Shown here: piece by piece, positions 6,536 through 56,208 of the stretch
How the letters are laid out: the number at the start of each line of letters is the position of its first letter
Numbering within the stretch: the first letter of the stretch is position 1
NCBI RefSeq assembly: GCF_030013595.1
Contig: NZ_CP122769.1
Length of the DNA: 64,000 bases
Source: Escherichia coli
GTDB taxonomy: Bacteria; Pseudomonadota; Gammaproteobacteria; Enterobacterales; Enterobacteriaceae
Direction: 5' to 3' (one strand)
Notes under the pieces: model-generated
Told to the model about the DNA's origin: nothing
Seen by the model: only the letters and a program-made list of their open reading frames with translations
The model's database searches: none
Translations under genes and position numbers: made by a program

Positions 6536-8554
6536 ATGAAATTAGATCTTAAATCATCACCGCGCCATATTAAGCGTTTACAGAATATAGCAAAAGTCAT
6601 TAGCGGCTTAGGCGATGTAAGAGTTGTAATAGACGACAATACCAAAGGACCGTATTTTGATCCTGTAAATAAAGTTTGTGTTTTACCAAACGGCGATTAT
6701 AGCGATGATGACTTTGTCAGTCTGATTGAAGGTTTTACCTGTCATGAAGCTGGTCATGGTCGCTATACCGACAGCGAGGTTTACAGTGACGCCTTTAATA
6801 GTGTTCTCAAGTCATCTGAAGGGTTTACACGCTTCGATGACGGAATGAATGCAGAGTTTGAGAGCCTCGCTGAGAAACGTAAAGCTTATAGCAGGGCAAA
6901 ACGTCTTACCGGGCTTATAAATCTGTTCGATGATGTACAGATGGAAGAGAAGGTTGGTAACGATTATCCGGATGCAAAGCGGCGGCTTGCAGCCACTTAC
7001 GCACTGATGGTTAAAGCCGGAAGGATGACTCCTGATATATCTTCTCGTCCGGAAAATCCTGTCCTATTTATTGAGTGGTATCTGCTTAACTCATTGCGAG
7101 TAAAAGTCCTTCAGCAGGCAGGTCACAAAGAAACACTCGATCCGTTTTTTGACTATGCCCAAAAGATACTTTCTCCAGTAATTTCTGATGTTGAGGAAAT
7201 TTTTCATGATGCTCTTGGTTGTGAAAATACTCAGGGCTGTGAATCCCTTGCTCGTAAGACCCTGGCTCTTTTAGAGAGACTGCGGGATGAGGCAAGGGAA
7301 CAACAGCAGCAGACAGAGCAGGAGGAGCAGGAGGCATATGATGAATCCGAGACCGAGACCGATACCGATACCGATACCGAATCAGAAGATAAATCGCTTG
7401 AGTCGACTGATAGTCGTGAGGATGATTCTGAGGACGATAGTGAAGGTCAGGCAGATACTTCCGATAACTCTGATCTTGCTCAAGAGGGATGTTCTGAGCC
7501 TTCAGAACTTGCTGAAGATAACGAGGGAAATAATGAACCCACCGGTGGCAATCCCACAGGTGATAACATTATTGAAGACGATACTGATGCGATTAACCCT
7601 TCCGAGAGTGAATCAGATGAAGCCAGTTCGACTAACGTTGAAGATGAAAGTAACTTTTCATCGGCTCAATGGGAGATACTGGCAGATTTGTTGGATGCCT
7701 TTCTTGGCAGTGATGAGGATAGCGAAGATTATCACGATGCTTTGGCTAAAGAGATTGAAGGTATTGCATCAAAAGTATCCGATGACGTGAAAGCCGAATT
7801 CGGTGCTTCTGAATGGGATATCCCTGATCTCCTTATCGATTTGAATGTTTACAATGAGGCTTTGTCTCTGAGTCATTCAATCGGTAGCGACTTGTCTGTT
7901 TTACAGCAGGTTAAAATGCGTGGCCGAAACAAAACTCATGAGCGTGGAATTACCTTCGATGGAAATCGATTAATTCTGTCACCAATGGGAGTTCGTGATG
8001 TCTTCAGAGCTCAAAGCGAATCTAAAAATAGAGGGCATGTTGGCCTCGTATTAGTTCGTGATATTTCAGCGTCAATGGCTAATGATGAAAGATATATTCA
8101 TGCCATTAAGTCAGATCTTGCTTTATCGATGGCCGCTGAAAGTTTGTCAAAAATGCATGTCTCCAATATAGTCTTTCCCTTCAAGGAAAGTGAATTTGAG
8201 ATTATCAAAACGTTTGATCAAAGCGTTGAGGAATCTCTATCGAAATTCACTCTTGGATGTAAGGGTTATTATACCCCTACGGGATCGGCTTTAATGGCAG
8301 CTGTTGATCTGTTACTTGACAGCCAATTCGATAGGAAAATAATTTTTCTTATAACTGATGGTTATCCGAATAAATCGGAATTTACTATCGGCGAAGTTAT
8401 GGAAAAGGCTAAATGTAATGGAATAGAAATCGTTGGTGTTGGTATTAAGACTGATGAAATAATTGGTTTTGAAACGGACACTTTCGTAACAGTTGATGAT
8501 ACTTCTTTATTGTCTATTGAAGTCAGTAAGCTAGTTCATCAAATACTTTCTTAA
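6536..8554 (+). CDS. von Willebrand factor A (vWA) domain protein, CobT-like, with N-terminal HExxH motif and central acidic low-complexity region
   Basis: C-terminal MIDAS-like motifs LVLVRDISASM and FLITDGYPN; N-terminal CHEAGHGRY (HExxH); central D/E/S/T-rich stretch including ETETDTDTDTESED encoded by hexanucleotide repeats. Confidence 0.75.
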   Translation: MKLDLKSSPRHIKRLQNIAKVISGLGDVRVVIDDNTKGPYFDPVNKVCVLPNGDYSDDDFVSLIEGFTCHEAGHGRYTDSEVYSDAFNSVLKSSEGFTRFDDGMNAEFESLAEKRKAYSRAKRLTGLINLFDDVQMEEKVGNDYPDAKRRLAATYALMVKAGRMTPDISSRPENPVLFIEWYLLNSLRVKVLQQAGHKETLDPFFDYAQKILSPVISDVEEIFHDALGCENTQGCESLARKTLALLERLRDEAREQQQQTEQEEQEAYDESETETDTDTDTESEDKSLESTDSREDDSEDDSEGQADTSDNSDLAQEGCSEPSELAEDNEGNNEPTGGNPTGDNIIEDDTDAINPSESESDEASSTNVEDESNFSSAQWEILADLLDAFLGSDEDSEDYHDALAKEIEGIASKVSDDVKAEFGASEWDIPDLLIDLNVYNEALSLSHSIGSDLSVLQQVKMRGRNKTHERGITFDGNRLILSPMGVRDVFRAQSESKNRGHVGLVLVRDISASMANDERYIHAIKSDLALSMAAESLSKMHVSNIVFPFKESEFEIIKTFDQSVEESLSKFTLGCKGYYTPTGSALMAAVDLLLDSQFDRKIIFLITDGYPNKSEFTIGEVMEKAKCNGIEIVGVGIKTDEIIGFETDTFVTVDDTSLLSIEVSKLVHQILS

Positions 8555-11063: not shown

Positions 11064-11942
11064 ATGAAGTTAGCTACGGACCTGGTAAAAGCTATTTTGA
11101 TTAGAAATGGCGTTGAACCAGTAAATATAAGCGAATCATCTAAGTTATCTTTGAAACAACCACTGACAGAACTTAAATTCAGTTTATATTTGCGAACTGA
11201 GCATTTATCTCACTTCCTACCCGGTTATGTTTATTCTATAAAAGAATGTCCACTGTCATATGACATCGGGATCGAAATTCAGAAAATCTTCGAAAGTTTA
11301 CATTTGTTAAACGAAGAATTTGAATCCCTCGGTTTTGTTTCTGTATGGATAGAAATGCATCAAAGCATTTTTGAACAAAGTCGGTTTAAGAAAAGTAACT
11401 TTACTTTTCGGGAGGAAGAGGTCGAGCTTGCTAAAGGGCTTGTTTGTTCTCACAATTCACAAATAAGTAATGCGGCTTATTTCTGGCTTCAGCACTTTGA
11501 GGAGTTTATGATTTATGTTCGTAATAAGCTTATCGACCTCTTTCGAGAGGCCTATGACCTGATCCTTGGAATGCAGCAAGTATTTTTCATTCGGGAAAAG
11601 GAAGAGCTGTTGAAAACTATAAGTTATGGCGATGAGCTGTATGAGGTGAAATTCATGGCGGCTGAGCTTTACTCTATCGAACAGAACTTAAAGTGTTCTG
11701 AATCGATAAGTACAAAATCTCAAGCTTCGGCATATATTAACCGCATCCGTGAGTTTGTGCGTTCGGGGTGGAGGCAGGGCTATATAGTCTGCCATCATAA
11801 GCGAAGTAATCAAATTTCATCATTGTCATTACCGATGTACTTGAAAGATACGTCAGGCCGAAGTGCTCGAAAGCGAGTAAAACGTCTTATATCTTCTACA
11901 GTTTGTGGTAGAAATAAAGATTTAGGTCTTACAGATTTTTAA
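11064..11942 (+). CDS. hypothetical protein
   Basis: 292-aa ORF with RBS GGAGG upstream, preceded by stem-loop CCCTGATG...CATCAGGG; no recognisable motifs. Confidence 0.45.
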   Translation: MKLATDLVKAILIRNGVEPVNISESSKLSLKQPLTELKFSLYLRTEHLSHFLPGYVYSIKECPLSYDIGIEIQKIFESLHLLNEEFESLGFVSVWIEMHQSIFEQSRFKKSNFTFREEEVELAKGLVCSHNSQISNAAYFWLQHFEEFMIYVRNKLIDLFREAYDLILGMQQVFFIREKEELLKTISYGDELYEVKFMAAELYSIEQNLKCSESISTKSQASAYINRIREFVRSGWRQGYIVCHHKRSNQISSLSLPMYLKDTSGRSARKRVKRLISSTVCGRNKDLGLTDF

Positions 11943-17072: not shown

Positions 17073-17237
17073 TCCTTTTGCTTCAGTCCAAAAAAGTAAC
17101 TTTGGTTGGCTGAAGACACTTGTCTATGACAATGTAAAATCTGTCGCTGGCATCTTCTTTTAGCTTAACCAAATTTTTATCTAACCCAGTGGGGAAGTCG
17201 CTTCCCTTCTGGGGCACTTCCTCTCAAATTCGAGGTA

Positions 17238-20783: not shown

Positions 20784-21764
20784 ATGAGCCTGGAGAAACG
20801 TATGAGTTATGACGATTTGCCCTATTTTCGTGACCAGATTCTGGAACGTATCGACTCGCTTAAGTGTTTTCTTTCGAACACCCCCCCGCTGATGGCAAAC
20901 CTGATGACTGTCTCCACCGTATCTCGAACAGAAGAGCGACTGAAGCAGGTTAAACCCATCAGGGTTAGTGTTAAAGACGATGCTTCGGTTGAGGAAATTA
21001 TTCAGGCACTTACTGACATCTGTGTGGATGACATAGAGTCATTAAGTCATGATTCCACCAAAGTGACCACTAAATACCCGGGTCTTATCATTGTCCCAGA
21101 AAGAGCAGATCTTCTCGAAAGCTTGATCACATCTATAAATGAAGCAAAAAATGATTTTGCTGCGGCAATGAGGCGTATCGATAATAAAAAGAATGTCCGT
21201 TTTGATAAAGTGCACAAGAAGCTCCCGGGCCTTGTCGCTATGCACTCAACAAGAAATGTCCTTTTCATCAAGTCCCAGCTTAAAAAAGTTACTTTTTCAT
21301 GGCGGCTAAACCGAAACCAGGAAGTTAAAACAGCAGAGCAACTTGTGAGTTTGTTGGAGCGCAGGAGAGCCTCAGAAGTAAAAAATGTAGCAACTACCAA
21401 TTTGAATGTCGTGTCTAATATCGATAAGGCTTTACACCGTCTTGAATTTCACCCACTGAAGCAGGGCGAATCTTATCGCCTTTGTCGAACTAACTCTTTC
21501 CCTGTTCCGATTGCTCACATTTTTGCATTTAGGCCTGAAGGGCAGGAACGAAACGGGAATAAATATGCTGAGACTGATTATTCAGTAGTAAAAGCATCCT
21601 TGCCCATTTTCGCAGCAGGCAACATACCTCAATTAAAAACGCTCTCTGACTGGGCTCCTGAAAACAGCCAGGGCCCGTCCAACCAACGGAAGCTGAGCCT
21701 GAAATATACAGAACTCGTGCCGGGGGCTGAGCTGGGCATTTTCATTGTCAGCCCCGAAAATTAA
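20784..21764 (+). CDS. hypothetical protein
   Basis: 326-aa ORF; alternative start at ATG 20823 has a better RBS (GGAGAAACG). No recognisable motifs. Confidence 0.45.
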   Translation: MSLEKRMSYDDLPYFRDQILERIDSLKCFLSNTPPLMANLMTVSTVSRTEERLKQVKPIRVSVKDDASVEEIIQALTDICVDDIESLSHDSTKVTTKYPGLIIVPERADLLESLITSINEAKNDFAAAMRRIDNKKNVRFDKVHKKLPGLVAMHSTRNVLFIKSQLKKVTFSWRLNRNQEVKTAEQLVSLLERRRASEVKNVATTNLNVVSNIDKALHRLEFHPLKQGESYRLCRTNSFPVPIAHIFAFRPEGQERNGNKYAETDYSVVKASLPIFAAGNIPQLKTLSDWAPENSQGPSNQRKLSLKYTELVPGAELGIFIVSPEN

Positions 21765-22965: not shown

Positions 22966-22981
22966 GCGCCCGTGAGGGCGC
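22966..22981. terminator. palindrome GCGCCCGTGAGGGCGC between convergent genes
   Basis: Perfect 6-bp stem with GTGA loop flanked by A-run upstream and T-rich sequence downstream; positioned between plus-strand stop (22959) and minus-strand stop (22981). Confidence 0.4.
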
Positions 22982-24171
22982 TATTCATCAAAGGCATTTC
23001 GCATAAGCTTGATCATTGCTTTTTTACCAGCTTCAATATTACGAATGTAGCGCATAACCATTTCTTCATTCGACCAGTTCCCCATTTCCATAATCTGTGG
23101 TAGCGAGTAACCTTCAATATTTAGCTGTATCGCTCCGCCTACACGAACGCTGTGCCCTGTCCAGTAACGAGTTTTAGTCTCATTTGGATAAAGCTCATTC
23201 CACATCTCTTTAAATGCTCGTAAAAGGGAATTTTTGCTGAGCATACCGGCATCGTCCACAGTGTCTTCTTCATCTTCATCTTCATCGTTCAGAAGACTTT
23301 GCTTAGCACGATAGGGTAGGTTATGCCTTTTAAGAAGTTCAGATAGCTCATTCCCCTTACTCCGAAGCTTCCAGCCGGGTGGCATATAGCCTGTATCATG
23401 GAAATTTACGGCCTGGAAAAGGAATTCATCCGGATGACTGTGCTGATCCATTTTCACGAGGTTCATCAATCTCAAGAGGCAGTTAGTTAACTGACGTGTC
23501 AGCCGGTAGGTAAGAAGTGTACTAATGTTCGTTTTTGTACGGTATACCGTCAGGTTAAATTCACCGGTCATACTATCCAGAGACAGATCTTTCAGACGTA
23601 TACGTCGAATTTCGGATGAACGGAGCAGTGTTTCAAAGCCTGTCCAGATCAGGCACAGGTCACGAAGTTTACGAACTGAGTTTGTAGTACTGCGTAACTT
23701 TATCAGAGCCTTGAGATCGCCAATAAGAAAGGGAGTTGCCTGTTTAGTCGTCTTTCGCTTCCGGGCTTCCGATTGTTTTAAGGCTTCCAGCATGTACCAT
23801 GCTTCAGACGTAATAATCCCGGGCAGGTTAAGCCCTTTTTTATGGATACTATTTAAGGCCTGAAGACAGCTGTTTATGCTGCTTCGTGACAATTTGCCTT
23901 CAAGATGCCCCATAAACGCAAGCAGAGCGTCCTCAGACACGGGGAGCGAACTTACTGGCCAGTCTGTATGCAACCGGGCATTCGCCAGATACCATTCGTT
24001 CCATACTCGTAGCCAGTGCAGATAGGTTTTAGCAGTGTTGTATCTCAGATGGGAAAAGTAACGGATCAAGCGTGAAAGCTGTTTATCATGGTTGCCGAAC
24101 GTTTCCAGCTGCTGATGCAATTCGCTTTCCGAAAACTGTCTGATCACTGATTGATTCTTCATCCTGCTCAC
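22981..24171 (-). CDS. tyrosine site-specific recombinase (phage-integrase family)
   Basis: C-terminal catalytic signature: LRSSEIRRIRLKDL (Arg), WTGHSVRVGGA (HxxR), MVMRYIRN (Tyr). Confidence 0.75.
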   Translation of the reverse strand: MSRMKNQSVIRQFSESELHQQLETFGNHDKQLSRLIRYFSHLRYNTAKTYLHWLRVWNEWYLANARLHTDWPVSSLPVSEDALLAFMGHLEGKLSRSSINSCLQALNSIHKKGLNLPGIITSEAWYMLEALKQSEARKRKTTKQATPFLIGDLKALIKLRSTTNSVRKLRDLCLIWTGFETLLRSSEIRRIRLKDLSLDSMTGEFNLTVYRTKTNISTLLTYRLTRQLTNCLLRLMNLVKMDQHSHPDEFLFQAVNFHDTGYMPPGWKLRSKGNELSELLKRHNLPYRAKQSLLNDEDEDEEDTVDDAGMLSKNSLLRAFKEMWNELYPNETKTRYWTGHSVRVGGAIQLNIEGYSLPQIMEMGNWSNEEMVMRYIRNIEAGKKAMIKLMRNAFDE

Positions 24172-24326: not shown

Positions 24327-24545
24327 TTGATTATGTCTGACACAAAGCAGTCTTATTTAATGAAATTCCGTAAGTGTAGTTCGTTCGAAACGCTCGAAAA
24401 AGTATTTGAAAGGTTATGTGAAAAAAACTCGGGTGTCGCCTCTCTTGAAATTTCTGGTGCTTATGATCATCGTAAAGCCGAACTGACAATGAAAAAGTTA
24501 TATGACAAAGTTCCTGCGAGTGTGTGGACCTTTGTTCGCGAGTAA
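24327..24545 (+). CDS. hypothetical small protein
   Basis: 72-aa ORF followed by hairpin GCCCCTTTCGGGGC; no recognisable motifs. Confidence 0.3.
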   Translation: MIMSDTKQSYLMKFRKCSSFETLEKVFERLCEKNSGVASLEISGAYDHRKAELTMKKLYDKVPASVWTFVRE

Positions 24546-24875
24546 TTATTAATATTGGCACAACAAAAAGACTGTGCCTGGATTTGAAAATAGTTTATGC
24601 CCCTTTCGGGGCTAAAGGCATTGTAATAGCCTGTCTTTTAAAGTTGTTTATTAAGTTCGGAGAAAAACTTTAATCATAAGCCAAGCCCACTGCTAAATAC
24701 ATCCGATATTCTCCTTCATTTTATTAGAAGTGATAAAAGTTACTTTACCTAAACTTCTCTCTCAATATTTGTAAGGCTCTCATTTGATTTTTGTCAAACA
24801 TTAATCTGGAAGACGGAAAAATCATTTCTTTTAATACGTTTTACAGAAATCCTCCTCCGTTATTTCGGATATAGT

Positions 24876-25988
24876 TTGAATCATTATCAAAAACGGGGTG
24901 CAGCCATGCGTAAGAGTTATACATTTGGTATTCCATTTGGACTCCAGCGTGAATCAGGACTCTTTTTAGATATTACAGAGGTCAGCCGGGGTATTGACTG
25001 TAACTGCATCTGCCCCGCTTGCAAAACTGATCTGTTAGCAAAGCAGGGGGAGGTCAAGCTTTGGCATTTCTCACACAGTACAGCTGTAGCCGGTGACTGT
25101 GATGGTCTGATGGAAGCCATCCGGGGAAAGATTATTGAAGTCATCAACGAGCACCAGGTTCTTGGTTTCCCAAATCTTCTCGCTGGCGACGATGGTGGGC
25201 CGGTTTCACTGAATGAGGTTAGTGGAAGCGGCAGTATGTTCGGAGGCACAGCTGATCTGTTCGTAAAGGTTAATGATTTATGTGTGGCCGTCTTTCTGGA
25301 CAGGGATCGCAGCATTTCAGAGAAGTTAACCTTTGACCATCTTCATCCTTCCGAAAGAGTTGCCGCATTGCGTATCGATCTTCCTGATATTGAATATGAA
25401 ATCAGTCAGGTGCAGCTCGGGCGACGTAAAACAACATACAGTGAGTGCATTGAAAGCCTGATCATTGATGAGACCAGTTCCCGGGAATGGCTATATCATC
25501 CATTAATGCATGAACTTGAATCTGAACCTCTTCAGGAGTATCGGGGACGGGAGCCTTCAGAGGAAGGGCCTCTTCTTCAGCGCCTTGCTGACTGTAAGAT
25601 GAAATTGCCTGATATCCTTCCGGGCAGTCATAACGCGCTAGTCAGGTTACAGCAGGATACGATTGTATGTCTGTGTCGGTTAACGGTTCGGGCTTATGAC
25701 ATCGCTCAGACCGATGAATTTCCTTTGTTCCTTCGCTATTTCAGGTTGCACTGCCTGGAAAACAGCGAACATGTCAGTTACGAAAGACTGATCTGCTGGC
25801 AGGAAATGATTTCAAAAACCCAGGAAGGCCAGTCCTTGACACAAAACGAACTTGAATATCTTCATGAGATTGTCCGCATCGCCTTTTACAATCACCGGCT
25901 TAACAATGTCAGTATTTCAGATGTTAAAAACCATGACACTGGAAAGAAGAGCGGCAGGGTAGAGTCACAAAACTATTCACTTTTATAA
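24876..25988 (+). CDS. hypothetical protein with N-terminal Cys/His motif, possibly CoiA-like
   Basis: Motif CNCICPACKTDLLAKQGEVKLWHFSH resembles the zinc-finger/HFxH signature recalled for CoiA-family proteins; remainder unassigned. Start may be the internal ATG (MRKSYTFG). Confidence 0.35.
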   Translation: MNHYQKRGAAMRKSYTFGIPFGLQRESGLFLDITEVSRGIDCNCICPACKTDLLAKQGEVKLWHFSHSTAVAGDCDGLMEAIRGKIIEVINEHQVLGFPNLLAGDDGGPVSLNEVSGSGSMFGGTADLFVKVNDLCVAVFLDRDRSISEKLTFDHLHPSERVAALRIDLPDIEYEISQVQLGRRKTTYSECIESLIIDETSSREWLYHPLMHELESEPLQEYRGREPSEEGPLLQRLADCKMKLPDILPGSHNALVRLQQDTIVCLCRLTVRAYDIAQTDEFPLFLRYFRLHCLENSEHVSYERLICWQEMISKTQEGQSLTQNELEYLHEIVRIAFYNHRLNNVSISDVKNHDTGKKSGRVESQNYSLL

Positions 25989-26154
25989 ATAACTTGGGCT
26001 TTGCGCATTAAACCCTTGCCGCAGGCGGTGTACCGCATATCCGGCACAGACAGTCAGTTTTTTCTGGCAGCTTAAATTTGACACTGCTTAATATAGTGAT
26101 TCATTAAACAGGTTCAGTATGCTGCCAGAACGTTTTAGTCGTAATGGGCGTCCG

Positions 26155-27708
26155 TTAGTTTTCAACTAACTGAACGACGACCAGCCTGCCGCCTTCCTCC
26201 TTTGACAGAACAAACTGAGCGTTATTCGTCAGTTCAATTTTTTCCCCAATGGCAATCTGTCGTTTATCCGGTAATGACATAAGCCCATTTATGCCTTCAT
26301 TTACTAACCACCACTGATCGTTATGGAAAACAAAATACCCAACTCGTTTCCTTTGTGCATCGGTTGTGCGCTCATTTGGCGCAATGAGGCGATTCACATG
26401 CCACGCATAGATTGACTGCCCGCTCCACACCATCAACCGGTGGTCGTCAGGACGATAACTGCCTTCCTTTCGGGATGAATATAAATTTAGAACCGGTAAT
26501 TTACCCTTGTATGGCGTACCGCAGTAGGGACAAACCGGCTTTGTCTTACCTGAGAAAACGTACCATTTCTGTTCACACGCCTTGTTCTGGCAGGGCTGTA
26601 TCAGATCGACTGTTTTAACCAGGGCACTTTCCCACTCATCGGCGGTCGGGCGTTTATTGGCATCGTGTAAGCCATCAATAAAGGCGCGTTCAAACAAAGG
26701 CGTCAAATAAGGGCCCATGATGGTGTAAGGAATTTTCTCCGGGTCAGCCCAGGGCAGTGAAAAGGAGGATATCTGACTGACTTTGACTGCATTGCTTTTG
26801 TCTGTCGGATGTTCAATGAAGAGTGCCTTCTCACCCATAGATAAGGTCTCATCACGTACTTCATCCGACATGTCATGTATTTTTCCGCCACGTAGCGGAT
26901 GACGGAAGAACAGATACATGTAGATAAGCACCGACAGCGCATGACGGTCAGTAGAAATGCTTGGCAATACGCGGTTCGGATCCTCTTTGGAAAGATGGCT
27001 GGTTTTCACCACTTCCGGAGCGATAAAATCCGGGGTGCCCACGACGTCGGGAGGATACTTTCCAGGGACAACCAGGCCGTCTACGTCAATGATGCAGGCA
27101 TGTCCCATTTCTGGATCGATAAGCACGTTTTTATAGCTTAGATCGCTGTGACAGAGACCTGCCGCATGCATCCTTCTGACGGCTCTTGTTAGCAGCAGAC
27201 AGACCTTGAGATAGGTAAGCGTATTGCCTCGTTCACGTGGGTCGAGAAATTTATTCTGGTTGCTGGCGCTGGCAAACCATTTGCCTTCCTTTTCACGGCC
27301 TTTTATGCCAAGAAAATCATCGTTTTTAGAGCCGTATTTAAAGAAAAAGTAGCTTTTGTAGGTTGGAACCACGATGCCGATTTTATCCCCATGCTCAACA
27401 ACGTGGGTCGGCCAGCAAAACAGGTCCTTCCAGTATTCACCTCCGGACTGGCCAAAAATGTTTTGCCTGTAGCGTCCGGTGATCATATCAATCCGATCCC
27501 GGGCCTGCTCGTTCTGCGGTTTATGATAAAAAGCGACGACGTATGATTTATCAGGCGAGAAGTAAACATCCTTCATCGAGCCCGAACCAATTACCTCGTC
27601 AACATACTGGACTGTTTCGCCGTCCTTTGTTTTGCACGTAACAATATTTGCCATATTGATCACCGAAGAAGCGTATCCCTTACCACAACACCGCAATAGT
27701 GCGGTCAT
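26155..27708 (-). CDS. Hanks-type serine/threonine protein kinase with C-terminal zinc-ribbon
   Basis: Gly-rich loop VIGSGSMKDVYF, catalytic loop HSDLSYKNVLI, IDVDG (DFG-equivalent), GTPDFIAPEV (APE motif); CQNKACEQ...CPYCG zinc ribbon. Alternative start at 27654 (MANIVTCK). Confidence 0.8.
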   Translation of the reverse strand: MTALLRCCGKGYASSVINMANIVTCKTKDGETVQYVDEVIGSGSMKDVYFSPDKSYVVAFYHKPQNEQARDRIDMITGRYRQNIFGQSGGEYWKDLFCWPTHVVEHGDKIGIVVPTYKSYFFFKYGSKNDDFLGIKGREKEGKWFASASNQNKFLDPRERGNTLTYLKVCLLLTRAVRRMHAAGLCHSDLSYKNVLIDPEMGHACIIDVDGLVVPGKYPPDVVGTPDFIAPEVVKTSHLSKEDPNRVLPSISTDRHALSVLIYMYLFFRHPLRGGKIHDMSDEVRDETLSMGEKALFIEHPTDKSNAVKVSQISSFSLPWADPEKIPYTIMGPYLTPLFERAFIDGLHDANKRPTADEWESALVKTVDLIQPCQNKACEQKWYVFSGKTKPVCPYCGTPYKGKLPVLNLYSSRKEGSYRPDDHRLMVWSGQSIYAWHVNRLIAPNERTTDAQRKRVGYFVFHNDQWWLVNEGINGLMSLPDKRQIAIGEKIELTNNAQFVLSKEEGGRLVVVQLVEN

Positions 27709-29320
27709 CGTGGTTCCCTGTGGAGAAAAAGTTAAGCCAGTCGCCTAACCTCTCAGGCGCAATACTGGCGTCTGTAAGGACAGGGATGAGCTCATCAAGG
27801 AGACGGGTCCATTTTTCGTCACTGCGAAGCCCGTTATCTGTCTCAAACAGAGGGTCTGATACGCCATCTGTCATGAGGATCAAGTGAGATACATCATTCC
27901 ATTTACCCACGCTGATGCGGCCGCTAAACGAGGGGTCTGCGATAATGCTCTGGTCAAGAAAGCGGGTTTGTCCTGCGTATTCTCCGCTATCGGGATTTCC
28001 CAGTATCCTGACTTTACCGGAAGGGCTGTATGCACCTATCGCACCATCACCAAGCCAGAATGCAGCCGCAAACAGCTCGTTATCAGTTCGTAGCGCTACA
28101 GTTGCCAGTAGGGTTGTTGAATAGGATTTCACAGGTTGTTCTGCACAAATGGCTTCGTTCTGGATACTGTTGACCGCGAGCGTAGCTGCCTGTTTAAAAT
28201 GATGAAGCATGGCGTTTATGGTTGCCTGCTGATCGCTCCCTTCCCACGCCGTGATGTGCTGCTTTAGATGGACGCCTTTCAAACCACTGAGCTGATTGAA
28301 AAGGTAATCGCCAGCCGTTTGGACTGCAATCCGGGAGCCTTCCCGGGAATTTACCGCACTACCGGCCCCGTCTGCGACCAGCATGACAGACCATCCTGTT
28401 TCCTGGCAGTGGTTGATATAGAAGTCGTCATCTCTGAAGCTCCCGGCATGCTCATGAGATCGTCCCCGGCGACTGGCGGCAGCAATACGTATGTCACCCC
28501 TGACCAGGCCAGCAGCGTCCAGATGGGACTTAGGGTAGGAAGCGTCTGCTGGTGGCTCTACCACCTTCCACAGGCTTCTCGGATCGGGATTGACTATAAA
28601 AAGCTGTTTTGTTTCGCATTCGTCGTGCGAAGCGCATGACCAGAGTACTGAAAGCTCTATATCGCCGCTTTCGGTGGGTGTACCTGTCAGCAACTTATGC
28701 TCTTTGTCAAAGGTCAGGCCAATGTTCCTGGGAAAGACAACGTCCCTGACAGTAGCCTGCTGGCCCTCATCCAGAACTATAGCAACCGGCGAAGAGAAAC
28801 GTTCGCCTGCGCGGGCGTTGGGAATAACTATTTTAGCTCTCGGGGGAACGGCAGGTGGCACAGCTAATCCGGCCCGCTGCTGGCCTGTCGGTATCTGCCC
28901 GGGTTTTAATACCAGGGAAGACAGGTTTTCGTCTTCCCTCTGTGCTGGTTTATCAAATTCGTAATAAGGCATCAGCTTCCAGAACGGAGGATGAGGTTCA
29001 TTTTCTGGCAGGGGTTGCAGTAATGGTGTATCGGTAGCGTCAATGCCCGGGTTATCAGCATCACTTACGACCGTTTGTTGCTGATCGGAAAGGCTGGATG
29101 CTGACGAGGGGGCGATCTCTGCGTCGTTATAACCTTCGCTAACCCGCGCAGATAAACCCTGTGCAAGGCTCTCAATCCGCTCTTTAAGCCGCATAATCTC
29201 TTCAGTAAGGGAAGGGTCGTGCGATAGAAGAAAAAGCCGCTCACCTTCTACAGGGTGGCCCAGCTCAGACAGCACTAAGCGGATAATCTTCTCTTCAAGT
29301 AAAACATTTTGCGACATCAA
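27680..29320 (-). CDS. PP2C-family serine/threonine phosphatase with N-terminal extension
   Basis: PP2C-like motifs MLVADGAGSAVNS and LILMTDGVSDPL; stop overlaps kinase start region and start overlaps upstream vWA gene stop. Confidence 0.75.
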   Translation of the reverse strand: MMSQNVLLEEKIIRLVLSELGHPVEGERLFLLSHDPSLTEEIMRLKERIESLAQGLSARVSEGYNDAEIAPSSASSLSDQQQTVVSDADNPGIDATDTPLLQPLPENEPHPPFWKLMPYYEFDKPAQREDENLSSLVLKPGQIPTGQQRAGLAVPPAVPPRAKIVIPNARAGERFSSPVAIVLDEGQQATVRDVVFPRNIGLTFDKEHKLLTGTPTESGDIELSVLWSCASHDECETKQLFIVNPDPRSLWKVVEPPADASYPKSHLDAAGLVRGDIRIAAASRRGRSHEHAGSFRDDDFYINHCQETGWSVMLVADGAGSAVNSREGSRIAVQTAGDYLFNQLSGLKGVHLKQHITAWEGSDQQATINAMLHHFKQAATLAVNSIQNEAICAEQPVKSYSTTLLATVALRTDNELFAAAFWLGDGAIGAYSPSGKVRILGNPDSGEYAGQTRFLDQSIIADPSFSGRISVGKWNDVSHLILMTDGVSDPLFETDNGLRSDEKWTRLLDELIPVLTDASIAPERLGDWLNFFSTGNHDDRTIAVLW

Positions 29321-30357
29321 CCTCTCCCTCTGTTTACGTCGAAGTTAGTGTTTCCGCCATCATTGCTGAATGACAGACCTGTTTCACACCACGGGCAGAT
29401 CACGTCATCCGGGCCGTCAATGCACAGCAATTTTCCGCATGAGCACAGGGCAAACGCACTGGCATTACCGCAGTGAGGGCAACCCGGTACGCCATGCAGT
29501 TCGCTGGTGTTTACCTGCAAACCGGTAGCGGTGGCATCTGACCATGCAAAATAGTCCTCATCGATGGGATAGCATCCGGCAATATTAAAGCTGTTCAGGT
29601 TCAGGCTGAAATCGAGCCCGGAAATCCTTGCTGGTGGCCGTTCATACTTCATCAGATACGGACGACGGGTCTTGCTGCAACGGCCGGTAAGCGTAACGCA
29701 GTTTTCGTCGTACGCTTTTACTGGCTCGTCCTTGGCCAGCCGGACTATGTATTCAGTCTGGCTGAGCTCAGGTTGTTTGTCGTCTCCGACGCTGCGGCTG
29801 TGCGCCGTAACCGAGGCTGTGATCCATTTGATGAAGCGGGTAAAGTCCCCTTCCTGAGACTCGGTGAACAGCATGACATTCTCTGTCAGTTGCCGCAGGG
29901 TATTCAGGTCCGCTGACGGCCCCAGGCCAACGGCAATGAGATTCACTTTACTCGCGTAGTGATCCTTCCAGCGCTTCACTTCTGCGGTTGTGTCGTCAGT
30001 CGGACGTCCGTCGGTAAGGAGATACACGACGGGTTTCCAGTCGCCTTTAGCCTCATGAGTGGTTTTTCTGACCTGGGTATCAATTTGTACGGTCAGCTCA
30101 CGCAATGCGGCCCCAAGGCTCGTACCGCCGCCAACGGGAAGGCGGGGAGGGTAGAACGAGGCAATTTCGTGAAGAGGTACAATCGTACGGGCTACACCGG
30201 CAAATGCGATTACCGAAACCCAGGCTGTTTCAAGTGCGTGTGGATCCTTTCTTAAATCTCCGATGATCATTTGCAGACCATCAGTCATTTTTTTCAGGTT
30301 TTCACCAATCATGGACTCTGAACAGTCCAGGACAAAAAACACGGGAAGGCGTCTCAT
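29317..30357 (-). CDS. TerY-like vWA protein with C-terminal zinc ribbon (third TerY paralogue)
   Basis: Start set at MRRLPVFFVLDCSESM (RBS GAGGAAA); MIDAS motifs DCSES and YLLTDGRPTDD; C-terminal CPHCG...CSCG...CPWC. Confidence 0.75.
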   Translation of the reverse strand: MRRLPVFFVLDCSESMIGENLKKMTDGLQMIIGDLRKDPHALETAWVSVIAFAGVARTIVPLHEIASFYPPRLPVGGGTSLGAALRELTVQIDTQVRKTTHEAKGDWKPVVYLLTDGRPTDDTTAEVKRWKDHYASKVNLIAVGLGPSADLNTLRQLTENVMLFTESQEGDFTRFIKWITASVTAHSRSVGDDKQPELSQTEYIVRLAKDEPVKAYDENCVTLTGRCSKTRRPYLMKYERPPARISGLDFSLNLNSFNIAGCYPIDEDYFAWSDATATGLQVNTSELHGVPGCPHCGNASAFALCSCGKLLCIDGPDDVICPWCETGLSFSNDGGNTNFDVNRGRG

Positions 30358-30442
30358 AATTTTCCTCGTACGGCTGGTACGGCCAGCAGAAAACGTTGCT
30401 GTACAGAAAGGTGCTGCCCGGAAAGCAGCACCTTTCTGTCTG

Positions 30443-31084
30443 TCAGAGCACCAGCTGGATTTCTGGTGGAGGAGGGGGAAGGGTATCAGTTCCGTTATTG
30501 ATCCCCGCGCTTGTGCTGCCGGAAGACACGCTGGCCGATACCCATTTAAAGAAACCTGCAAACGCGGTTGAATCTAGCGTCTCCAGAGACACAACCTTAT
30601 CGGTGAGCTGTTTTAAGTGCTCATGGCCTGCTTTAGGACCAACGGCGCAGGCAATGATGGATCCGAATCCCCGGCCGCGAATCGCTTTTACCGCTTCACC
30701 GTACGCCAGGGCATCAGAAGGGGTTCCATCAGTCATCAGGAATACCAGAGGACGCCAGTCTCCTTTTGTATCACCATCTGAGCGACGTACATCCCGTTCA
30801 ACACACTGCATCAGACATTCAAGGGCAGCACCGGTGAACGTCCCGCCTGCGCTTGGCACAACGATGTCAGAAAACTGGAAGTCTTCCAGCGGCGTGAGAG
30901 GAATGAACTCACGCGCCTCATTGTCATAGGTGATAATGGAGATATGAACGCTTTCGAGGGCGTAGGGATCCTGGCGAAGAGCGCTAAGCATCGCCTGAAT
31001 TCCAACGTTAACGGAATGGATGGACTCACCGCGCATCGAGCCGGATGTGTCGATAACAAGGTAAACAGGCAGGCGGCGCATCAC
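30443..31084 (-). CDS. TerY-like vWA protein (second TerY paralogue)
   Basis: MMRRLPVYLVIDTSGSM and FLMTDGTPSD MIDAS motifs; 213 aa; start overlaps terX stop. Confidence 0.8.
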   Translation of the reverse strand: MMRRLPVYLVIDTSGSMRGESIHSVNVGIQAMLSALRQDPYALESVHISIITYDNEAREFIPLTPLEDFQFSDIVVPSAGGTFTGAALECLMQCVERDVRRSDGDTKGDWRPLVFLMTDGTPSDALAYGEAVKAIRGRGFGSIIACAVGPKAGHEHLKQLTDKVVSLETLDSTAFAGFFKWVSASVSSGSTSAGINNGTDTLPPPPPEIQLVL

Positions 31085-38505: not shown

Positions 38506-39564
38506 TTAATTCAGATGGTTAGAGAGTGATTCCGGGTAAACGATGACATCTGTGATGGATCTCACTGCAACCGGAGAAAAGGTATTTCTGGCGCTCTGGA
38601 TCACCGCATCTTCAGACATCAGACCGAGCTTAAAGGCAGCAAACAACCCGGGAAGGTTCACCCCGCTGTGAAGGGTATAACCCACCCCGCCTGACGGACG
38701 CATGTTGGTTTCAAGCAGCACCGGGTTGCCATTCACATCGTTTCGCGTCTGAACATTCACCAGCCCGTCGGCCTTCATAACCCGGGCGCAGTCACAAGCC
38801 AGTTCCCAGGCGCTTCCTTCGTTTACCAGATACTGGATAGCCCCTTCCTTACGGCGTCCCACGGCTGCGAGTATTTCGCCCTTATCCGCGAGGATATCGA
38901 CGGAAAATTCCGGGCCTGGCAGGTACGGCATCAAAACAAGGGGTTTAAACGACTCAGAAGCCGATGCTGCTGCAATATACTGTTGCGGACTGACCAGACG
39001 ATGTTCGGGATGATTAAAGACGGCCATGGGCGAAGCACTGTCATCAAAGCGCCAGAATCCCATGCCATAGATACCCGTCACCGGCTTCACGCATACCGGG
39101 CTGTCCGAGAACGGCGGGGCCGCGAGGTGCGTCTTTAATTCTGCCAGCGTATTCACCCGCCAGGACGGTACGACCGGGAGCCCGTTTTGCTCCATAAACT
39201 GAGCAAAAGTAACTTTTTCGTCAGCCAGAGTTAACCAGTCGACGCCTGTTGCACCGGTAGTAAGGGTGGCTCCGGTCGATTCAATGGCTGAACGGTGTTC
39301 TTCAAACCACTGGCTGTTACGGCCAGTATGAATATGGTGGATGCCGTAGGTCTGAATGGTTTCCTGAATAAACTGAAGACGTTTTTGAGGATCTTCAGGT
39401 TCAGTCAAAGAATAATCGGCAACGGAAAGAATTTCATGTCTTTCGTTACGGTGGGAGGCAAATACGGTAATAGCAAAATTATTTTTTTGTGCAAATGATT
39501 TTACCCCCTGAATAATATCTCGCTGGGAGGACAAACCTTCCATAAACCAAATTTTCTTGTTCAT
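38506..39564 (-). CDS. ATP-grasp family enzyme
   Basis: 352-aa product with ATP-grasp-like organisation; first gene of the minus-strand operon, divergent from terZ. Family assignment by recollection of ter-linked clusters. Confidence 0.6.
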   Translation of the reverse strand: MNKKIWFMEGLSSQRDIIQGVKSFAQKNNFAITVFASHRNERHEILSVADYSLTEPEDPQKRLQFIQETIQTYGIHHIHTGRNSQWFEEHRSAIESTGATLTTGATGVDWLTLADEKVTFAQFMEQNGLPVVPSWRVNTLAELKTHLAAPPFSDSPVCVKPVTGIYGMGFWRFDDSASPMAVFNHPEHRLVSPQQYIAAASASESFKPLVLMPYLPGPEFSVDILADKGEILAAVGRRKEGAIQYLVNEGSAWELACDCARVMKADGLVNVQTRNDVNGNPVLLETNMRPSGGVGYTLHSGVNLPGLFAAFKLGLMSEDAVIQSARNTFSPVAVRSITDVIVYPESLSNHLN

Positions 39565-43793: not shown

Positions 43794-43860
43794 TCGAAAA
43801 GTAACTTTTCACCCGGGGCTGTTAATGCAGCCCTCATTCAACTGTTTGCAGGAGCTAAAA

Positions 43861-55365: not shown

Positions 55366-56208
55366 ATGGCTAGGGGTAGGCGTCTCAAATCCTATTTGGA
55401 TTATGAAAATGCGCTAGGTGACGGCATAGGAGTGGGCTATGGCCAAAGTTATCAGCCCTGGCTTAGAGCTCAGGACGTTAAATCCCGTGGAAACCGTTCG
55501 ATAGTCTTTGGCCTTAAGACGTTTCGAAACCATCATCTCCTTTCTTCTGTCGAAAGTAACTTTTTCTATCTGGCTGAGTTTAATGACTCGGTGATTGATA
55601 TCCGGGAACAATTCCCACTCTTTCCTCTCCGGCTTACCCAACAAATAGCAAATCATCTACATTTTCAACATCCTATGGTGAGGGGAGTAAGAGGAGTACC
55701 TGTCGAAGTTCTGAATGTTATGACAACCGATTTTTTACTGACCTTGAGAACTCCTGAAGGCGGACTTCGATACAAAGCTATAGCAGTAAAACATAACGAG
55801 AGCATACCTGAACGCGAAGCCCAAAAACTTGAAATAGAGAGGATGTTTTGGCAGTTGATTGATGTTGAGTTTCAAATTTATGTTGGCTCGGAACTCAATA
55901 ACGTCGTCGGTAAAAACATTTGCTGGGCTACTTCTGTATTAAGAGATGGTTCTGAATTTTATGATAAATATCCTCTTGATAAAATCCTATGGAAGCTTAA
56001 ACCAGATGTTTATCCCATAGTAGGACTACGTGCAATGATTTCATCAATCTTTGGGGTAGATGCACAAGAAGCGATGATGTTATTGCAGGCAATGATTGGA
56101 TTAAAAATGATAAATGTTGATTTATCATATCCAATACTCGAAACCGGTCTGATAAAGATAATTTCCAATGACCACTATATAGGACTGAACGCAAATGGAT
56201 ATTATTAG
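55366..56208 (+). CDS. tnsA: TnsA-like endonuclease
   Basis: Colinear with Tn7 TnsA (YQPWLRAQDV..., HLLSS, IDIREQFPLFPL, LEIERMFWQ). Confidence 0.85.
   Translation: MARGRRLKSYLDYENALGDGIGVGYGQSYQPWLRAQDVKSRGNRSIVFGLKTFRNHHLLSSVESNFFYLAEFNDSVIDIREQFPLFPLRLTQQIANHLHFQHPMVRGVRGVPVEVLNVMTTDFLLTLRTPEGGLRYKAIAVKHNESIPEREAQKLEIERMFWQLIDVEFQIYVGSELNNVVGKNICWATSVLRDGSEFYDKYPLDKILWKLKPDVYPIVGLRAMISSIFGVDAQEAMMLLQAMIGLKMINVDLSYPILETGLIKIISNDHYIGLNANGYY

Follow-up and report, generated by a model that had tools for sequence, protein, structure and literature searches.

The window analyzed here is a 64,000-nucleotide stretch of Escherichia coli DNA (contig NZ_CP122769.1), and the program-made list of open reading frames (ORFs) places one at 24876-25988 on its + strand. 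The original prediction, made from the letters of this DNA, described the product as a stand-alone 370-aa protein with an N-terminal Cys/His motif and as a possible CoiA-like nuclease. The ORF itself stands, while the 370-aa length, which counts from TTG 24876, is likely 360 aa. Translation almost certainly starts at ATG 24906, giving a coding sequence at 24906..25988 (+ strand, 360 aa plus stop, RefSeq WP_001232449.1), because all homologs begin with the N-terminus MRKSY, a Shine-Dalgarno-like GGGG (24895..24898, + strand) lies 7 nt 5' of this ATG, and RefSeq places the gene start there. In an alignment of upstream regions, GGGG or GGAG occupies the Shine-Dalgarno place in five lineages and is the only well-conserved upstream feature. 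Residue numbers below count from ATG 24906.

The gene is real and under purifying selection. Comparison of two IncHI2 lineages gave a ratio of non-synonymous to synonymous substitution rates (dN/dS) of 0.125, with 13 synonymous and 6 non-synonymous changes; against IncHI1 and more distant relatives synonymous sites are saturated, and the protein is still 34-73% identical. By tblastn the protein was found in 2,809 plasmid records, 2,494 of them at a coverage of at least 80%, chiefly from Klebsiella, Escherichia, Salmonella and Enterobacter. The surrounding 1.8 kb share 100% identity with many IncHI2A plasmids of E. coli and Salmonella (1,212 plasmid records). We conclude that the window is IncHI2 plasmid backbone, and that the gene is a conserved backbone gene of IncHI-type conjugative plasmids. 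Multidrug, mcr and heavy-metal resistance is carried to a major extent by IncHI1 and IncHI2 plasmids, whose backbone genes are for the most part of unknown function. Databases name this protein "hypothetical protein", [quoted passage not shown] (UniRef) or, in newer NCBI records, "competence protein CoiA family protein", so that a CoiA link is already recorded as annotation.

Domain composition and relation to CoiA

The N-terminal domain (residues 1-65; 24906..25100, + strand) comprises a beta-hairpin and a Cys/His zinc finger of the CoiA_N type. Its motif reads C32-N-C34-I-C36-P-A-C39-K ... W53-H54-F55-S56-H57 ... C65, with C36, C39, H54, H57 and C65 as candidate zinc ligands. The motif is present as originally described and is conserved in 123 superfamily members, in which G29, C34, C36, C39, H57, C65 and W195 are invariant and C32, P37 and H54 almost so. 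The match to Pfam CoiA_N (PF25164) covers residues 33-59 at 32.5 bits against a cut-off of 26.3 (E 6e-8), and no other Pfam domain was found in the protein. Alignment of the superfamily profile with streptococcal CoiA by hhalign was confined to the finger (probability 96%, E 3e-9) and set C36/C39/H54/H57/C65 against C26/C29/H44/H47/C53 of CoiA. The streptococcal proteins used are real database entries, retrieved with an approximate query (about 83% identity) that was not used further. The proposed resemblance of the N-terminal motif to CoiA is confirmed by these matches, and since that to CoiA_N is significant, the protein is not without similarity to CoiA or nuclease families.

Profile comparison supported the remainder of the CoiA assignment less well. 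The CoiA nuclease domain, CoiA_nuc (PF06054), was not matched by the protein even at E values up to 10, nor was the C-terminal domain CoiA_C (PF25166). As a positive control, twelve plasmid-borne CoiA-family proteins from Bacillota, Proteobacteria, Archaea and Streptomyces were assembled, and all ten of those scanned match PF06054 above the cut-off. Matches above the cut-off lie on plasmids or megaplasmids of Variovorax, Vibrio parahaemolyticus, Ralstonia, Rhizobium, Thermococcus, a haloarchaeon and Streptomyces (L017, L018, L019, L021, L022, L023 and L024); the CoiA nuclease domain thus also occurs outside Bacillota, to which the competence role of CoiA may be restricted. Searches of NCBIfam with the IncHI protein gave no match, and those of PHROGs gave noise only.

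An exhaustive phmmer search (E up to 1e-3) returned 2,369 representative proteins or clusters, with many of the matches spanning residues 9-210. Among the relatives scanned, CoiA_N is carried by 43 of 43 and CoiA_nuc by none of the 43; matches of relatives to DUF7828 and DUF7830 overlap the finger and bring in no further domain. The protein has the features of this uncharacterized CoiA_N superfamily, namely a CxCxCPxC ... WHFxH ... C finger, the homologous core and a WxYHP motif (residues 195-199). Besides the IncHI clade, two classes are seen in the set of 123. In class A (22/123), helix 1 carries ExxxHxxxK, beta2 has PD, beta3 a Glu and beta4 ExD; class B, the majority, has R...KQ, D and Y-x-T-H-G-R. 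Judged by its sequence, the protein is a member of a large, mostly proteobacterial superfamily of common descent with the competence nuclease CoiA, and is not a CoiA ortholog.

Beyond the finger, the connection to CoiA runs through class A. At full length, class A aligned by hhalign with the diverse CoiA proteins over 124 columns through beta4 (probability 98.2%, E 6e-14), pairing the helix-1 triad, the Asp and the Glu. When the finger was excluded, the core of the IncHI proteins (residues 66-215) matched the class A core (probability 98.3%, E 1.5e-14), and the class A core matched the diverse CoiA core (probability 82%, E 1e-5). The IncHI core did not significantly match the diverse CoiA core directly (E 0.085), only tADlfv being aligned with aDv.i, and the class A core did not significantly match the shallow streptococcal-only CoiA profile (E 0.17). 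Against that streptococcal profile the IncHI clade, too, aligned in the finger only. The central domain thus appears to be a remote relative of the CoiA nuclease domain, a relationship demonstrable only transitively via class A.

This central alpha/beta domain (residues 66-200; 25101..25505, + strand) has a predicted restriction-endonuclease-like fold. AlphaFold2, supplied with the 123-sequence alignment, gave a predicted local distance difference test score (pLDDT) of 90 at full length, and a pLDDT of 94 with a predicted template modeling score (pTM) of 0.91 for residues 1-215. In the model, N-terminal beta-hairpins bear the Cys/His ligands and are followed by a long helix (67-83) and a mixed sheet with a tight hairpin (118-122/125-132) and further strands at 152-158 and 193-197, an arrangement in which the alpha-beta-beta-beta-alpha-beta core of PD-(D/E)xK nucleases can be recognized. 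Structural matches of the domain are nearly all to restriction-endonuclease-like (PD-(D/E)xK) nucleases, and all are weak. A Foldseek search of the PDB with the model gave no significant match and again listed PD-(D/E)xK families; sequence searches of the PDB with the single protein and with a profile gave no match. Structure prediction therefore supplied a high-confidence model of nuclease type with weak structural counterparts, and the fold assignment is consistent but not strong; no close relative has a solved structure.

The residues expected of a CoiA nuclease are mostly replaced. Fifteen diverse CoiA proteins share C26, C29, H44, F45, H47, E60, H64, K68, D95, E105, Q107 and W132 without exception, and in Streptococcus pneumoniae CoiA no longer functions when D95A or E105A is introduced (Hardy et al., bioRxiv 10.1101/2024.02.06.579203). 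E60, H64, K68, D95, E105 and Q107 correspond to M69, R73, I77, D117, F130 and D132 in the IncHI protein, which keeps one of the seven invariant CoiA core residues, the beta2 Asp. This residue, D117, lies in tADlfv, aligned to iADvfv of CoiA (D95); it is Asp in 120 of the 123 relatives and is replaced by Pro in P0010, inside the IncHI clade, and in P0013, the closest outgroup (44% identity). Of the PD-(D/E)xK motif D ... (D/E)xK only this first Asp is present, beta3 reading F130-L-D132. The ExxxHxxxK of helix 1 is represented by M69, R73 and I77, and the Glu-x-Gln of beta3 (E105, Q107) by F130 and D132, as judged from the alignment and the hairpin register. F130 was assigned to the Glu position from the MAFFT alignment, an Asp-to-Glu spacing of 13 as in class A, and a predicted two-residue hairpin turn. 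The beta3 Glu, helix-1 His and helix-1 Lys are substituted in every member of the IncHI clade, whose residues at core positions are M69, R73, I77, E78, D117, F130, D132, D134, R135, R156 and D158; among these, D132, D134, R135, R156 and D158 are clade-specific and invariant. The suggested CoiA-like nuclease is therefore upheld in its finger, and neither in matches to CoiA_nuc and CoiA_C nor in the CoiA catalytic set. The label "competence protein CoiA family protein" is misleading, because the finger is shared and the catalytic residues are not.

A conserved segment, IAQTDEFPLFLRYFRLHC, lies in the remainder of the protein, an all-helical C-terminal domain (residues 222-343; 25569..25934, + strand) restricted to the plasmid clade.

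Genetic neighborhood and the R27 homolog

On the 5' side of the gene lie a gene for a Tus-like replication terminus-binding protein (20784-21764; Pfam Ter, E 5e-19), genes for two hypothetical proteins, a tyrosine recombinase gene (22981-24171, - strand) and hha (about 24333-24545, + strand), the last identified as Hha/YmoA family by Pfam HHA (E 9e-19) and by RefSeq annotation. The description of the gene as standing alone next to the recombinase does not hold, as hha sits between the two; the genes conserved with it are hha and those of the recombinase and the Tus-like protein. The Tus-like gene has the same neighbors in all IncHI-type relatives examined, and hha is kept in IncHI-type backbones as the co-oriented upstream neighbor (L002-L004, L006). 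The order Tus-like, recombinase, Hha and gene is kept in relatives at 58-62% identity (L002-L004) and persists at 34% identity in a Klebsiella IncFIB/IncHI1B plasmid, where the gap between hha and the gene is 85 nt. In the Klebsiella plasmid, an inserted group II intron reverse transcriptase/maturase also separates hha from the tyrosine recombinase gene (L006 3661-5148).

The spacer between hha and the gene in the window is 360 bp long and AT-rich (GC about 36%). A GC-rich hairpin without a T-run, GCCCCTTTCGGGGC, lies at 24601-24614, 56 nt past the hha stop, and may be a transcript-end or processing element between the two genes. The gene had been credited with its own promoter. That claim is not supported by a consensus promoter scan, in which the + strand of 24546-24905 had no sigma-70-like site; a candidate -10 hexamer, TATAGT (24870-24875, + strand), is partly conserved and lies in a GATATAcTG block common to L002 and L004. 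A further GC-rich hairpin (25996..26015) follows right after the stop codon, before the convergent kinase gene, and is terminator-like on the - strand only in a terminator scan.

Downstream and convergent to the gene is a TerY-P-type module (26155-31084, - strand) of a protein kinase, a PP2C phosphatase, a von Willebrand factor A (vWA) protein with a TerY-C metal-binding domain, and a further vWA protein. The right-side neighbors vary in every lineage and this module is not conserved beside the gene elsewhere, so the link to the ter-linked kinase, part of the context first given for the gene, is incidental.

Plasmid R27 (IncHI1) encodes a homolog with 73% identity (WP_001232452.1; 154,290-155,363). 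Gene order identifies this homolog most probably as R0176, the ORF directly preceding the insB/insA genes of IS1 (R0177/R0178). Its neighbors are those of the window gene except for an insertion of a RepFIA-like replicon (repE) and IS1 between hha and the homolog (L007 1291-6403, corresponding to R27 154,290-159,402). Co-transcription with hha is therefore not required. An Hha-linked toxin-antitoxin pair was considered and rejected, since the replicon and IS1 separate the two genes in R27 and 360 bp with a hairpin do so in the window.

R0176, described only as an ORF of unknown function, is expressed 5.2-fold higher at 37 C than at 25 C (PMC7366339). In the transfer-derepressed htdA mutant it is the only gene down-regulated at 25 C (2.5-fold), and at 37 C it falls 7.4-fold (PMC7366339). 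The convergent neighbor R0175 rises 10-fold in the same mutant at 25 C (PMC7366339) as R0176 falls, and these opposite responses suggest transcriptional interference as a simple alternative explanation. The deletion Del15 (150,566-156,499), which covers the R27 homolog whatever its R-number, did not lower the stability of R27 in E. coli (PMC4853401). Literature searches on TerY with CoiA and on CoiA-like plasmid genes found nothing relevant.

The original prediction had also suggested a defense factor. This found no backing in PADLOC-DB 2.0, where the protein matched no known defense-system protein and drew only a spurious CorA-like hit to its helical tail (E 0.002). Nine relatives were likewise without a PADLOC match, except for a weak DruB zinc-finger match of P0097 (E 0.007). 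Among distant superfamily members, the class B protein P0029 begins 25 nt past an LmuB-like SMC ATPase gene (L010 4295-7954; PADLOC LmuB, E 4e-26) in surroundings that include a restriction-modification helicase/endonuclease, HipBA and an integrase; the two may form a Lamassu-like pairing with a CoiA_N/nuclease-fold effector. The class A protein P0097 is encoded on a Candidatus Accumulibacter contig (L009 1-15053) among genes for a Cap4 nuclease and TIR_2, a DruA-like gene, IS66 and integrases. On a Salmonella plasmid (L011 3521-8038), P0013 is the last of a tight four-gene cluster without hha, which encodes a 552-aa protein of unknown function, an AAA_16/STAND-like NTPase, a DUF6933 protein and the CoiA_N protein and which looks like an operon.

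Interpretation of the protein

The protein has three parts, a CoiA-type zinc finger, a core of predicted restriction-endonuclease-like fold and a clade-specific helical C-terminus. The IncHI branch has exchanged nearly all of the CoiA catalytic residues, several of them for hydrophobic ones (M69, I77, F130), with D117 retained. The finger and the nuclease-fold scaffold may then bind DNA, recognizing either a structure or a particular sequence with no cleavage of the canonical kind, and such recognition could serve a plasmid DNA transaction or a regulatory role. As the catalytic set is largely replaced and D117 alone is kept, we favor a nuclease-derived DNA-recognition protein without canonical catalysis, a reading to which we give about an even chance. 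From the domain composition, homology chain, residue replacements, synteny and purifying selection observed here, we infer its DNA binding, its loss of catalysis and its role.

Two observations weigh against this reading. The placement of F130 depends on the alignment and the predicted hairpin register, hhalign having left the F130/Glu stretch unaligned. In addition, charged residues that are invariant in the clade (E/D78, D132, D134, R135, H147, E150, R156, D158, D161, E163 and E165) could represent a relocated active site. Active-site relocation is known in the PD-(D/E)xK superfamily.

The protein may accordingly be an active nuclease with a remodeled, non-canonical site, composed for example of E78, D117, D132 and D134 with R135 or R193 in place of the lysine. 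It would cut single-stranded or branched DNA, as CoiA does, and act on plasmid recombination or replication intermediates or, as a factor of defense or plasmid competition, on incoming foreign DNA. The restriction-endonuclease-like fold, the retention of D117 in nearly all relatives, the clustering of clade-invariant acidic residues on and past beta3 and beta4, and strong purifying selection are all consistent with such an enzyme, as are the nearby Tus-like and tyrosine recombinase genes and the defense-island-like contexts of P0029 and P0097. Those contexts, however, belong to other subclasses of the superfamily, and the protein itself matched neither CoiA_nuc nor any PADLOC defense family. 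The clade-wide replacement of the beta3 Glu and of the helix-1 His and Lys, the loss of D117 from P0010 and P0013, and the unimpaired plasmid stability of Del15 also argue against cleavage. We regard an active nuclease as possible but doubtful, and less probable than a DNA-recognition protein without canonical catalysis.

A specific form of the DNA-recognition reading involves the palindrome AAAGTWACTTT. The window has 10 copies (517-527, 1196-1206, 7647-7657, 11392-11402, 17093-17103, 21285-21295, 24736-24746, 39206-39216, 43798-43808 and 55553-55563), where 0.01 would be expected for the 12-mer AAAAGTWACTTT. A further 23 sites occur in 50 kb of Klebsiella IncFIB/IncHI1B-type backbone (L025), others in L002, L004, L006 and L007, and none in 45 kb of non-IncHI loci. 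No other palindrome of the 5-N-5 form comes near its frequency in either the window or the Klebsiella plasmid. Over IncHI backbones the sites are spaced every 2-6 kb and fall within genes as well as in intergenic DNA. One copy, within the palindrome AAAAGTTACTTTA at 24735..24747, lies about 165 nt 5' of ATG 24906 and is a candidate operator; it has counterparts at the equivalent place in R27, L002 and L004, making four lineages with the window. Another lies within the Tus-like gene at a comparable offset in five lineages and is the longest invariant run of that gene in four aligned lineages. A role as Ter site for the Tus-like protein was rejected, the palindrome being symmetric and far too frequent. 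The copy at 55553-55563 is within an ORF (55366-56208) that has a TnsA-like endonuclease N-terminal domain (E 1e-15), which suggests a Tn7-like element by sequence similarity.

By analogy, the palindrome resembles a plasmid-wide operator like the OB sites of KorB, and it may be the trace of a so far undescribed DNA-binding system spanning whole IncHI plasmids; a literature search on AAAGTWACTTT or an IncHI operator found nothing relevant. Restriction-endonuclease-fold proteins typically read short palindromes as dimers. The protein could thus be a sequence-specific AAAGTWACTTT binder, a nuclease-dead, restriction-enzyme-like dimer that regulates or organizes the whole plasmid, although the link is speculative and we think it improbable. 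The abundance of the motif in the window and the Klebsiella backbone, the copy upstream of the gene in four lineages and the restriction of both gene and motif to IncHI-type backbones among the loci examined would fit such a binder. The evidence is nevertheless one of co-occurrence alone, in which dozens of other uncharacterized backbone proteins share equally, and the Klebsiella plasmid has no copy between hha and the gene. It is similarly unlikely that the binder would follow a logic like that of KorB and OB on IncP plasmids, with expression inverse to that of the transfer genes.

A true CoiA ortholog that resolves transformation D-loops in natural competence has in its favor the CoiA_N match and some CoiA names in NCBI and UniRef, and is effectively refuted by the tests of family membership: CoiA_nuc and CoiA_C are unmatched, equivalents of E105, H64 and K68 are absent, the C-terminal domain is unrelated, and the gene is plasmid-borne in Enterobacterales where the role of CoiA belongs to Bacillota competence and RadA, leaving this explanation with next to no probability.

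The present analysis adds to the database annotation that the finger resemblance is real, that the core is remote and that the catalytic set is mostly gone in the IncHI clade, and it identifies Hha, the recombinase and the Tus-like gene, not ter genes, as the conserved partners. If an inactivated CoiA-type nuclease has indeed been reused for DNA recognition, the protein would clearly exemplify how pseudo-enzymes evolve on plasmids. Other candidates in the superfamily are the class A members, which look catalytically competent, and the pairing with a Lamassu-type ATPase.

Comparison with known systems

CoiA of S. pneumoniae and Bacillus is a D-loop resolvase in natural transformation, whose role is linked to competence in Bacillota and to RadA (Hardy et al., bioRxiv 10.1101/2024.02.06.579203). 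The protein described here shares with CoiA (PF25164, PF06054, PF25166) the succession of a CPxC ... HFxH ... C finger, a core of PD-(D/E)xK fold and a C-terminal extension. Unlike CoiA, it has two extra cysteines (C32 and C34) and about 25 residues of beta-hairpins before the catalytic hairpin, and its C-terminal helical bundle is unrelated to the CoiA C-terminus. Where CoiA is the product of a competence-regulated chromosomal gene of Bacillota acting with RadA, this protein is encoded on proteobacterial conjugative plasmids, specifically the IncHI plasmids of Enterobacterales, with no competence link.

The class A proteins (for example P0050, P0097 and P0111), an uncharacterized sister group, share with it the CxCxCPxC ... 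WHFxH ... C pattern of the finger, the homologous core and the WxYHP motif; they differ in retaining the CoiA-like catalytic set and in lacking the helical C-terminal domain, and one of them is encoded in a defense island of a large assembled contig, not on an IncHI backbone. The small structure-specific PD-(D/E)xK nucleases Hjc, YraN/UPF0102, Vsr, NucS and Bax1 gave weak structural scores and have no sequence similarity to the protein. These nucleases keep the D...(D/E)xK motif, and none has a CoiA-type finger or the C-terminal bundle.

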